Notes: a model not told the origin generated them from the letters alone. A stretch of 64,000 nucleotides of DNA from Eledone cirrhosa (GCA_964016885.1 OZ024743.1:312480001-312544000); one strand, 5' to 3'. Positions 10,669 to 16,564 are shown, numbered from the stretch's first letter. Numbers and translations: made by a program.

Positions 10669-10945
10669 ATATATATATATATATACAATATATATATATA
10701 TATATATATATATATATATATATATATATATATATATATATATATATATATATATATATATATATATATATATATATATATATATATATTGTTATACTTT
10801 GGGAGGGTCATGTTGCCAATAAGAAACACACGCACCAGTTGCTTTCACTTCAATTTATTATATATTTATAAATTTATATATCTACAAACTTATAAATTTC
10901 TGGTTGGTTGGTTGGTTCCACAACAAGATAGTTGTTTATATATAT

Positions 10946-10990
10946 AGTCATAGTCCTTTCGTCACACACTCTGTGACCTCTTCAGTGACT
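10946..10990 (-). ncRNA. Hammerhead-like motif in the 3' pLTR
   Basis: AGTCA-CTGAAGA-G-GTCACA-GAGTG-TGTGAC-GAAA-GGAC-TA-TGACT on the minus strand. Confidence 0.65.
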
Positions 10991-11297
10991 GGGGATTCCT
11001 TTCTTCGTTTCTGTGCCTTTCCTTTCTTCTATCCTACGCCATTTTGTTTCTGTGTGTGTGTTGTGTGCTCAGTTTGCGCATGCGCCACATCCGGGTGTCT
11101 GTGTGTGTTTGTGTTCATTTTTCTATTTTTCTATTTATATTTTTCTATTTGTTTATTTATTTATTTATTTATTGTTGGTTGGTTGTTTGTTCTATGTGTG
11201 TGTGTGTTTTCATTTTGTCCTGTGTGTGTTTTCATTTTGTGTGTGTTTTCAATTGTAAGTTGTTTGTTCTATGTGTGTGTGTGTTTTCATTTTGTCC

Positions 11298-14200
11298 TTA
11301 ATTGTAAGTTGTGATGTTGCTGTTCCACTCATATTTTCTATTTAATTTTGGTTTTAATTCTTTTATGCTTACTGCCTCTGTAATTTGCCTAAACATTGCG
11401 TCTTTTCTGTGTGTGGATTCTATTTTTATTTCTATGCTCTCTAATCTACCCCTGTGTTCTATCTTAGCATGTTGGTAGAGCACAGATGATTCTTTATTAT
11501 CTTGGAGGTCTCGCCAGTGTTCATTTATTCGTTCCCCTATACTACGAGCTGTCTCACCTATGTACACTATATTTTTGTTTCTACATTGTCCTTCAGTACA
11601 TCTTATGCTATACACTACATTTCTAGTTTTACAGTTAATATGGGGGCTTATTTTACAGGTTATACATTTCTTATCTATACATGAGGGTCTTTGGAACGGG
11701 TATGTCTTGCTAATAAGTGTTTTTACGGAGGTACCAGGTCTTTCTACTATCTTAATATTGAGATTATGTTTATTTAGGGCCCTTCTAAATTTGTAGGCTA
11801 GTTCGCCTCTAGGGGTTGTATTGATGAACATTACACTCTGGTATTTATTGCTATCATACCATGAGTTTATTCTATTGGCCTTGTTCCTAGTTCTTTCTAT
11901 TCTATTCCAAAATTTGCTCCTATACAAGGGGCAGGTCCCATTTATGTCATTATTTACCATTTTTTCCCATTTGGTTCTGGCTCCTTTATACACTCTGATT
12001 CTATCTCTCTGATTGTAGCCAGAGAACTGCATACGGTGGATGAAGTGTTGTATGTGTCTCTCTAGTTCTTCGGGGTTGCACATGCGGGACACATTTCTCA
12101 TCACCCGTACCAAATCCGCAATCAGTATGTTGATTTTGGTATGGTCCGAAATGGCCGAGTTTCGGTGGATCAGATGTTTGGAAGTCATGGGTTTGGCATA
12201 ATGGGAATGGAGGATTTGGTTTTGGTTGTTAATGGTATCTAACCAGAGCTCTGTGTCTAGTACAGGTAATCGATGGTTGGGGTGTCTACTTGGGTAGTCT
12301 ATAGTAACTCTAATGCTCTGGTGGATGGAGTTTGCTATTTGCTGGATGCTTTCCATTGTGTTTTTCTCTAGTTCGTGACTGTTCTTTAGTGGGGTGTCTT
12401 AACTACGATGTTTATATCATCTACGTAGCGGGAGTACATTATCAGGGTTAAGCTGTCTTCTAATTGTTCATTAAGTTTTTGTTTAAGTCTACTGTCCCAC
12501 CATACCATGAATAAGTTAGCTATGTCGCCTGCAATGCTAACACCAATGGCTGCTCCTTCCTCTTGGGCATATGTTTTACCATTAAATTTGAACATATGTT
12601 CCTTAAGGGTTAATTTTATGCTGGCCCCTACCGCATGTGCAATCATTTTCTTCAGTTCATCGTGGTTTTCGGGTGTCCGTATGGCTCTGGTCCACCCGTT
12701 CCATCTATCTGTGTGGGTTTTCTTGGCCATTGAGGTAATGGTAGGTGGTCTGCCTCTTGCTGGTCTTGTAGGGCACAGGTTTCTAAGGTCATAAGTGTCT
12801 AGGTAACTATTACTATGGGTAAGCTTAAGTAGAAGTCCCAGCTCACTGGTATCAATCCCACGGAACTCAACCTTGCTCTCGCTGATCATTTCTACGCATT
12901 TCTCCACAGCAAAATCCACGTCAATAGATGGATACAGGGACACAACATCCATACTGCCTATTATGAAGTTTGTTAGGTCCCCAGATCGGTTACCCGCGCC
13001 GATTCTGCTGAGGAGGTCCTCCGTGCTGTCACACACATCTGGGGACATCTCAATGATGGGGCGTATGATCAGGGAGAGGAAGTAGGACAGTCTGTAGTTA
13101 CTAGCAATGTTAGCCCCACAGACTGGCCGTGTTGGTGGTCCCGCGACAGGGTCCCAGCCCGTTTTATGGTCTTTTCGAAGCCCATACAACGCCGGCACGT
13201 CATTGTTCCAGGCCTGGAAGTTGTTGGCAGTCCTTTTGTTGGGCTGCATTATATTTGTCCACATCACCATATGGGCATTGAGGGCTTTTTCTCTATCCTC
13301 ATGCTCCTGTGGTGTTACCTCTCTTGTGTTGGTGATGTGGGGTTGCATTGCCTGGATGTAGTTTGGCAGGCTGTCAACCGACATTCTGCCAGACTTGTCT
13401 GTTGGAAAGCATGCTATCTCTCCATTACGCGAGCGCTGCATGAGCTTACGCAAGCCATTTGCAGATTCTTCTCCCAGTTGCTGGGCCTCTATTCTGTTAT
13501 GCTTCTTGCTATACTGTTCTATAATATTTCTAAGTTCGGATTTAGCTATACTAAATTGTGCTTCTGTTTGTTCATCGACCTGCGACGGCAACTGCGTGCG
13601 TTTGTTAAATGGCAAAGTCGTGGCGTGGACTCGTCGTAGGTCGAATGATTTATCGGAGGGGTTATAAAACGGAGAGTTCCAGGCTGCTGCTTTATGTGTA
13701 CTAGTGCTATTATTATTGTTAGTTGTGTTGTTTCTATTTCCATCAACAGCCTCAGCTTCATGGTTGTTTCTATGTCTCTCATAATTACTCCTGTCTCTTT
13801 CCACTGGCTCAATGTTGTTATCTACCCTATTTTGTGTGTCTGTGTGTTCGTCTTGGTTATTCTCTTTGTCCTTAGTCTCCCATCTCCTTTTCCTTTTAAT
13901 CCTATTACTTTCTCTTATTTCTGATTTCTGTGCTACTGTCATTACTTGTTTTCTGTGTCTGTGTGTTTGTTAAGATTGTGGTGGTGGTGAGAGGCGTTGA
14001 ATGCGTGTGTGTTGTTGTTGTTGATGTGTGTTGTTGTTGATGTGTGTTGTTGTTGATGTGTGTTGTTGTTGTCTCCGTGTGTGTGTGTGTCATCGTTGTT
14101 GTGTGTGTTGTTATTGTTGTTTGTGTCTGCGTGTCTGTTGTTGTTGTATCTGGGTATGTTGCTATTGTTGTTGTTGTTGATGTGTGTGTTGTTGTTATTG

Positions 14201-15121: not shown

Positions 15122-15712
15122 AGGAACAAGGCCAATAGAATAAACTCATGGTATGATAGCAATAAATACCAGAGTGTAATGTTCATCAATACAACCCCTA
15201 GAGGCGAACTAGCCTACAAATTTAGAAGGGCCCTAAATAAACATAATCTCAATATTAAGATAGTAGAAAGACCTGGTACCTCCGTAAAAACACTTATTAG
15301 CAAGACATACCCGTTCCAAAGACCCTCATGTATAGATAAGAAATGTATAACCTGTAAAATAAGCCCCCATATTAACTGTAAAACTAGAAATGTAGTGTAT
15401 AGCATAAGATGTACTGAAGGACAATGTAGAAACAAAAATATAGTGTACATAGGTGAGACAGCTCGTAGTATAGGGGAACGAATAAATGAACACTGGCGAG
15501 ACCTCCAAGATAATAAAGAATCATCTGTGCTCTACCAACATGCTAAGATAGAACACAGGGGTAGATTAGAGAGCATAGAAATAAAAATAGAATCCACACA
15601 CAGAAAAGACGCAATGTTTAGGCAAATTACAGAGGCAGTAAGCATAAAAGAATTAAAACCAAAATTAAATAGAAAATATGAGTGGAACAGCAACATCACA
15701 ACTTACAATTAA
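15122..15712 (+). CDS. Duplicated GIY-YIG coding segment in the inverted pLTR (not an independent gene)
   Basis: The 177-aa ORF is identical to the C-terminus of the 11298-12356 ORF. Confidence 0.9.
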   Translation, partial: RNKANRINSWYDSNKYQSVMFINTTPRGELAYKFRRALNKHNLNIKIVERPGTSVKTLISKTYPFQRPSCIDKKCITCKISPHINCKTRNVVYSIRCTEGQCRNKNIVYIGETARSIGERINEHWRDLQDNKESSVLYQHAKIEHRGRLESIEIKIESTHRKDAMFRQITEAVSIKELKPKLNRKYEWNSNITTYN

Positions 15713-16019
15713 GGACAAAATGAAAACACACACACACATAGAACAAACAACTTACAATTGAAAACACACACAAAATGAAAACACACACAGGACAAAATGA
15801 AAACACACACACACATAGAACAAACAACCAACCAACAATAAATAAATAAATAAATAAACAAATAGAAAAATATAAATAGAAAAATAGAAAAATGAACACA
15901 AACACACACAGACACCCGGATGTGGCGCATGCGCAAACTGAGCACACAACACACACACAGAAACAAAATGGCGTAGGATAGAAGAAAGGAAAGGCACAGA
16001 AACGAAGAAAGGAATCCCC

Positions 16020-16064
16020 AGTCACTGAAGAGGTCACAGAGTGTGTGACGAAAGGACTATGACT
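16020..16064 (+). ncRNA. Hammerhead-like motif in the inverted pLTR
   Basis: Mirror copy of 10946-10990: stem I AGTCA/TGACT, core CTGAAGA...GAAA, 6-bp stem II. Confidence 0.65.
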
Positions 16065-16564
16065 ATATATATAAACAACTATCTGGTTGTGGAACCAACC
16101 AACCAACCAGAAATTTATAAGTTTGTAGATATATAAATTTATAAATATATAATAAATTGAAGTGAAAGCAACTGGTGCGTGTGTTTCTTATTGGCAACAT
16201 GACCCTCCCAAAGTATAACAATATCGGTTTCAACACACGATTTCAGATAAAGAATCTTGCTAAACAAATTCAGAAACGAAATATATATATATATATATAT
16301 ATATATATATATATATATATATATATATATATGTGTGTATATATACAATATATTAACAAATGGAAACTATATTTATAAAACCATATTTATTTCATATGAA
16401 ATATGTATAATGAAATAAATATGGTTTTATAAATATAGTATCCATTTGTTAATATATTGTATGTTTACTCCAATAATTTGTTGTGTGCTTTATATCAGTT
16501 ATAAAAATACTTTGCTTGTTGTATCCCAACAAATTAAATATAACCTCTACATATATATATATAT

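Follow-up and report, generated by a model that had tools for sequence, protein, structure and literature searches.

For Penelope-like elements (PLEs), the accessible parts of four papers (PMC3846280, PMC8557442, PMC8969392 and PMC2377424) already describe an inverted arm, a one-sided tail, an open reading frame (ORF) that starts in the pseudo-long terminal repeat (pLTR), and palindromes at the junctions. In this work we analysed an insertion of this type, at positions 10786–16284 of a 64,000-nt stretch of Eledone cirrhosa DNA (hereafter the window), where it is flanked on both sides by (TA)n tracts, together with the family to which it belongs. Judged from its sequence it is an endonuclease-bearing (EN+) PLE, with a reverse transcriptase (RT) plus, at the C terminus, a GIY-YIG endonuclease in one ORF. 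The inverted insertions of this family nearly always pair an outer end at a fixed site, A, with an outer end at a second fixed site, B, 60 nt away, and their two arms have a common source, suggesting that both ends of the cut target probably primed on element RNA.

Pen2a_Av of Adineta vaga and the canonical EN+ PLEs, as presented in the accessible parts of PMC3846280 and PMC8557442, also have an inverted 5'-truncated copy beside the body, a tail that is often at one end, the first ORF codons in the pLTR and tail, junction palindromes and an Asn-rich ORF insert; the Asn/Thr-rich repeat of the Eledone ORF resembles these inserts of the Adineta Penelope elements. Their tail measures 30–40 nt, against 60 nt in the Eledone family. 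The origin of inverted arms and one-sided tails in PLEs is still debated, and these papers propose self-priming or endonuclease resolution, whereas here the one-end rule was counted (96/102) and is read as paired priming. The purified protein of PAc, a Poseidon element of Anolis carolinensis and a predicted dimer, cuts and extends both strands, and it starts at two internal sites, both in the ORF start, which delimit the tail; like the Eledone element PAc has AT-rich targets, and it has an upstream hammerhead where the Eledone element shows a hammerhead-like motif (PMC11167929, in its accessible part). The PAc start sites lack target homology, whereas both Eledone sites end in AATAT; the Eledone element, unlike PAc, carries the Cys linker of Neptune and Nematis; and the accessible text on PAc is silent on inverted arms, its one 'inverted' referring to a blocking group. 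Neptune and Nematis PLEs share with the Eledone element the C-terminal GIY-YIG domain, the CX2-5CxxC linker and the targeting of microsatellites (PMC8557442, in part). In L1 twin priming likewise, as far as the accessible part of PMC9148063 describes it, both cut ends prime on RNA and an inverted segment results; unlike L1, the Eledone family has no poly(A), both its sites are fixed, one and the same stretch of template is copied into each of its two cDNAs, and its body does not end at the second site. We found no pairing count and no twin-priming model for PLEs in the literature searched; Arkhipova 2006, Evgen'ev and Arkhipova 2005, Pyatkov 2004 and supplements may hold them.

The insertion is laid out as follows:

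10667–10789, no strand: left (TA)n target tract (repeat scan and sequence)
10786–15103, minus strand: body, one unit minus the 60-nt tail, with its 3' end at site A (10786) and its 5' end 8 nt inside site B (15103)
15078–15124, no strand: head-to-head junction, comprising an 18-bp stem (15078–15095 with 15100–15117), a 14-nt fold-back insertion (15104–15117) and a 7-nt duplication (15118–15124)
15122–16284, plus strand: inverted arm, with a C-terminal ORF fragment, the 3' UTR/pLTR, the ORF start and the tail; 3' end at site B
16199–16284, plus strand: ORF start, 29 codons, ATG at 16199
16225–16284, plus strand: tail of 60 nt, bounded by site A (16224) and site B (16284), each of which ends in AATAT
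16281–16353, no strand: right (TA)n target tract (repeat scan)

Positions 15122–16224 are the reverse complement of 11888–10786 over 1,103 nt, with a sole internal mismatch (16085/10925). The right arm overshoots its partner by 60 nt and ends with ACGAAATAT at 16276–16284, after which (TA)n begins; ATG 16199 starts a 29-amino-acid peptide in this arm. The same 9-mer, ACGAAATAT, recurs on the minus strand at 15103–15095 in the codon phase of the N-terminal ORF; it is found nowhere else in the window. An earlier note on this DNA, made from the sequence, had recognized a PLE with an inverted pLTR, the longer arm, the ORF start, the shared 9-mer and a very young copy with one mismatch in 1.1 kb, all of which is confirmed here: the copy is young, and the insertion is a real feature, but an ordinary copy of a known kind of element.

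Fixed outer ends and their pairing

Positions are given below relative to site B (0 = 16284), which places site A at −60. Copies were located by exact sequence patterns. The family is abundant, with 14,735 exact genomic matches to a 27-mer of the tail and 405 to a 25-mer of the ORF start; the first 100 of these 405 places were examined, and the set of long copies omits L100 and L154, which are second units of tandems. The exact 28-nt join that leads from the arm tail into the body start is present in 91 of the 100 copies, so that the contiguity predicted in the earlier note holds across the family, and in 98 of the 100 at least 30 nt of tail lie directly upstream and run into the previous unit. 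This contiguity reflects the partial-tandem organization of the family, with its pLTRs, and is silent on how the window copy formed. In 52 of 98 copies there is an inverted arm whose outer end falls within range.

In agreement with that note, both outer ends are 3' ends of the element, meeting (TA)n at AATAT, and they are fixed. Genome-wide, exact ends number 12,404 at A and 10,829 at B, which are about equally common; among 138 ends scored, 126 enter a TA repeat, with 57 exactly at A, 50 exactly at B and most others within a few bases. The ends move in steps of TA register (0, −3, −5 and −60, −63, −65). AATAT occurs 12 times per unit, and homology alone therefore does not pick the two sites.

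Three sets of insertions give together 96 of 102 classifiable cases in which one A end is paired with one B end. Among long copies with both ends visible, 42 of 44 classifiable ones are mixed, 21 in each direction and the window copy included (Fisher P 1.3e-10; four more were unclassified). An independent sample consisted of all 190 exact A and B ends in the first 42.7 Mb of C1; of the 44 head-to-head pairs that it holds at distances of up to 5 kb, 40 are mixed (binomial P 1.7e-8), against one of four tail-to-tail neighbours. The third set is mixed in 14 cases of 14, two others being unclassified. Inspection of exceptions showed that L217 consists of two separate insertions and that L208, L218 and L227 are complex.

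The contents of the arms bear on their templates. In the window copy the B arm has a tail that is missing from the A arm, and the A arm has ORF sequence that is missing from the B arm; consequently neither arm is a DNA copy of the other and both need an RNA template. Across the family the A arm is the longer one in 12 of 31 short pairs, which remain of 37 after removal of a duplicate and of five pairs picked by hand; among 42 long copies the ORF is on the A arm in 21. Sequence comparison shows that the two arms of an insertion have a common source: the nearest of about 79 copies is the arm's own partner in 27 of 42 insertions, subfamily sites of paired arms agree at 0.9 or more in 40 of 44 (mean with other copies, 0.54), and the window arms have three rare alleles in common and lie 0.2% apart, against 0.9% to the nearest other copy.

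Some insertions (L099–L100, L153–L154 and L136) are arrays of two or more units, and in the youngest (L124 and L151) the upstream and downstream units are identical over 1.1–1.7 kb; both observations fit a circular or multimeric template, as proposed in the accessible part of PMC4209133. In L231 a very small inverted A/B unit, about 100 nt long, occurs as two tandem copies.

Body ends, inner ends and junctions

In L1 twin priming the non-inverted part ends at or near the second priming site, and the earlier note had taken the exact in-frame fit between the window arm and body as such a footprint. The family does not behave in this way: arm ends are fixed throughout, and body 5' ends form no peak at B. 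The body ends within 15 nt of its arm's start site in 3 of 50 copies, where permutation predicts 2.6, so that the tabulation of arm 3' ends against body 5' ends suggested by that note yields no more matches than chance; among the other copies with a B arm, 0 of 23 have a body end within 15 nt of B, the nearest lying at −24. Bodies read through both A and B in 89 of 98 copies. Between 0 and −200 the stopping rate stays flat (0.14–0.21 per 100 nt), and the roughly 2 bodies in 100 that end no more than 10 nt upstream of B are what the local rate predicts. Because this first sample was blind to stops just downstream of B, 37 further places were taken with a pattern at +222 to reveal them. In this sample 23 bodies end between +9 and +218, evenly spread, with two within 15 nt; one of these two, L295, has an L1-like geometry, its arm ending at −7 and its body starting at +14. 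The idea that body ends peak at B, on its upstream or its downstream side, was thus rejected; pattern counts are 405, 476 and 528 at +1, +32 and +222. Actually, the body of L132 ends at the same base as that of the window copy (−8) though its arm ends at A. The window arm ends at ACGAAATAT for the reason that roughly half of the ends in the family lie there, and the in-frame fit is a trivial consequence of contiguity; that the window body stopped 8 nt inside B, and hence that the fit is exact, is probably a coincidence, perhaps helped by a small ACGA/TCGT hairpin.

Inner ends, where the two arms meet, are variable, but they lie near each other more often than expected. They are at most 30 nt apart in 10 of the 31 short pairs against 3.2 expected (8 of 29 against 2.8 for pairs without a natural palindrome), and at most 300 nt apart in 18 of 58 long copies against 11.1 expected, in a comparison made post hoc; long copies show no overall inner-end correlation (rho −0.01). 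The B arm showed no fixed lag relative to the A arm. At the natural pLTR palindromes at −168 and −197 the arms meet symmetrically (L111, L115, L165, L193, L230 and L242). A hot spot from −310 to −345 (about 15940–15975 in the window) holds 12 of 62 inner ends of short insertions, against two per neighbouring bin; it closely follows a GC-rich palindrome and precedes the predicted hammerhead cut by about 100 nt. This hot spot is a candidate transcription start, and the 5' end of a shared RNA would explain part of the coincidence of inner ends; the Penelope transcript starts inside the upstream pLTR, according to the accessible part of PMC2377424.

At the window junction the pieces are contiguous in the family, as the earlier note had it, but the join itself is not clean, and neither its fold-back and duplication nor the broken state of the ORF had been seen. 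Positions 15078–15117 form an 18-bp stem with a 4-nt loop, in which the 14-nt insertion copies the body's own end as a fold-back; beyond it lies the 7-nt duplication, with a 3-nt overlap (AGG) into the arm. The junction sequence occurs once in the whole genome, and a fold-back junction as a recurrent trait of the family was rejected on this ground. In the read contigs of X1 the native contiguous form appears as a loose end in two, and none of those listed crosses the window junction; X21 has no reads there. Among 63 family junctions, classed from BLAST overlaps and hence approximately, 34 show microhomology, 6 are blunt and 23 have an insertion; stems of at least 8 bp are present at 12 of them. 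Fold-back and microhomology joins resemble alternative end joining. The junctions of L092, L093, L119, L187 and L236 are complex, with extra element pieces of either orientation between the arms.

Coding capacity and other features of the window

The ORF and the remaining motifs of the insertion are:

13942–15103, minus strand: ORF piece 1, N-terminal part without the start, with an Asn/Thr-rich repeat at 14002–14414
12386–13969, minus strand: ORF piece 2, RT core (YVDD), bounded by two private frameshifts; RVT_1 match, E 4e-4, below cut-off
11298–12398, minus strand: ORF piece 3, end of the RT, CX4CX2C linker and GIY-YIG endonuclease; profile match obtained on the identical arm copy
10947–10989, minus strand: hammerhead-like motif in the 3' pLTR, mirror of 16021–16063 (by arm identity; motif by eye)
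16021–16063, plus strand: hammerhead-like motif of the minimal type I, with CUGANGA, stem II, GAAA and a stem III that is very short (by eye)
15916–15934, plus strand: GC-rich motif that contains a 10-bp palindrome and closely precedes the inner-end hot spot, a candidate promoter

The body ORF is split over three frames by two deletions, one of 2 nt near 13923 and the other of 1 nt near 12395. Both are private to the window copy (67 and 72 copies scored), and programmed frameshifts were rejected for this reason. Because of these two frameshifts the full element cannot be read from the window copy, contrary to the view that it could be rebuilt from this copy alone. Among the 100 sampled copies, 14 have an uninterrupted ORF to its natural end, of 1,216–1,318 amino acids; the Asn/Thr-rich repeat differs in length among copies while the frame remains open. 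For the protein of a natural copy, 214 relatives reach an E value of 1e-10 or lower, and a hypothetical Octopus vulgaris protein is the nearest (69% identical). On the arm copy, GIY-YIG gives a Pfam match with E 1.5e-4 and 22.5 bits, for a cut-off of 22.6, and the sole PDB match is a GIY-YIG intron endonuclease (E 0.14). The three Cys of the linker are invariant in 10 of 10 aligned proteins, in which the GIY-YIG residues are also conserved. This linker is of the CX2-5CxxC type, which together with the target points to the Neptune or Nematis clade, following the accessible part of PMC8557442.

In the hammerhead-like motif the core and stem II were identified by eye and stem II is also found in the predicted fold (z −1.08); Rfam gave no match for it, returning AT-rich microRNA noise only. 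The GC-rich motif at 15916–15934 presumably resembles ETS and NRF1 sites. The minimal type I hammerhead type is described in PMC4209133, in its accessible part. Nothing remarkable was predicted for the fold of the tail region (z 0.73). Adjoining the right (TA)n tract, positions 16343–16462 form a near-perfect AT-rich inverted repeat with arms of about 53 bp and a loop of 14 nt (−46.4 kcal/mol as DNA), which has no match to the PLE unit and is possibly a small non-autonomous DNA element. Elsewhere in the window we noted a 48-bp tandem array (46658–47154; 10.4 copies, 92%), a T6C-type array (1340–1610), and 166-bp and 78-bp two-copy repeats (33664–34597).

Probable double priming and its alternatives

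We consider it rather likely that the window holds a young, frameshifted EN+ PLE copy whose outer ends lie at two sites 60 nt apart because both cut ends of the (TA)n target primed on the element RNA, one at each site. Priming from both cut ends, already proposed in the earlier note, is the best reading of the outer ends and arm contents, and the 96/102 pairing extends it from one copy to the family. According to this model, the protein, perhaps as a dimer, would cut both strands of (TA)n, and each target 3' end would anneal through AATAT at one of two sites set by the protein, the match between AATAT and (TA)n setting the register and not choosing the site. In the window copy, the left target end would start at A and copy nearly the whole unit, while the right end would start at B and copy 1.16 kb. 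The two cDNAs, templated by one RNA or by two sibling RNAs, would grow inward and stop at variable points; extension of a fold-back and short microhomology would then link their 3' ends head to head, in the manner of alternative end joining.

The likeness to L1 invites a stricter version, in which a single tandem RNA is primed at a downstream A and an upstream B, the first polymerase being halted at the second primer. The window geometry fits it exactly, with a 9-nt overlap, that of L295 is similar, and inner ends that approach each other above chance hint at a shared template. Bodies are nevertheless not enriched at the start site of their arm (3/50 against 2.6; 0/23 for B arms), 89 of 98 pass both sites at a flat stopping rate, the 23 downstream ends are spread evenly over +9 to +218, and L132 stops at −8 despite an arm that ends at A. 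These observations contradict L1-type twin priming as a rule of the family, and for the window copy we regard it as quite improbable. An explanation of the kind published for PLEs (PMC3846280 and PMC8557442, in their accessible parts) would have a cDNA or antisense-templated intermediate fold back and prime itself, after which the endonuclease trims one end and leaves the tail one-sided. It predicts a tail at one end, and both the fold-back at the window junction, with stems of at least 8 bp at 12 of 63 junctions, and the enrichment of near-symmetrical short insertions speak in its favour. An arm made by fold-back must however lie within its template, which fails in the window copy and wherever the A arm is longer; the window fold-back spans 14 nt only, 51 of 63 junctions have no long stem, and the steps of the ends track the TA register, as priming would give. 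Self-priming with endonuclease resolution thus appears unlikely. Finally, in a genome with more than 20,000 ends, two independent insertions, a later recombination or an assembly chimera might produce such a structure; none of the contigs listed crosses the window junction, and the two private frameshifts in a young copy might be errors in the sequence. With independent events A and B would be paired randomly and the window arms would not have their three rare alleles in common, and the templated fold-back and duplication are unlike the product of a collapsed repeat, in a layout that recurs in most copies; this origin is very improbable.

Several points weigh against double priming itself. The mechanism proposed for the Eledone family rests on sequence, and the samples come from C1 and part of C2, one family in one genome, with exact matching that favours young copies and an end tally that detects only ends downstream of −80. 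Six of the 102 classifiable pairs are A/A or B/B, among which at least L169 looks like a genuine exception, and the arms of L092 and L093 are discordant, belonging to different subfamilies. Paired arms can also be alike because the subfamilies were active in different periods, or because the arms underwent gene conversion with each other. If a single RNA served both polymerases, the one from B might be expected to be delayed behind the one from A, and no sign of this is seen (19 against 16). In addition, the start sites described in the accessible part of PMC11167929 have no homology to the cut DNA and are alike on both strands, whereas here both end in AATAT.

More tentatively, double priming may be the normal integration pathway of the family, a proposal that we advance with less than even confidence: an asymmetric dimer on a single RNA would start one cDNA at each tail boundary, one from either side of the cut, a trailing or lapping polymerase would displace the other cDNA, and the host would join the 3' ends. 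The pairing rule, one A, one B and a common source, is sharp in a family whose ends number in the tens of thousands. Through it the pair of start sites and the activity on both strands known in vitro are connected with the inverted structure found in genomes, a connection that is testable in the existing in vitro system. If double priming is indeed the normal route, the inverted pLTR and the one-sided tail would be a single footprint of one reaction, and the element would have no second-strand step of its own at the far end.

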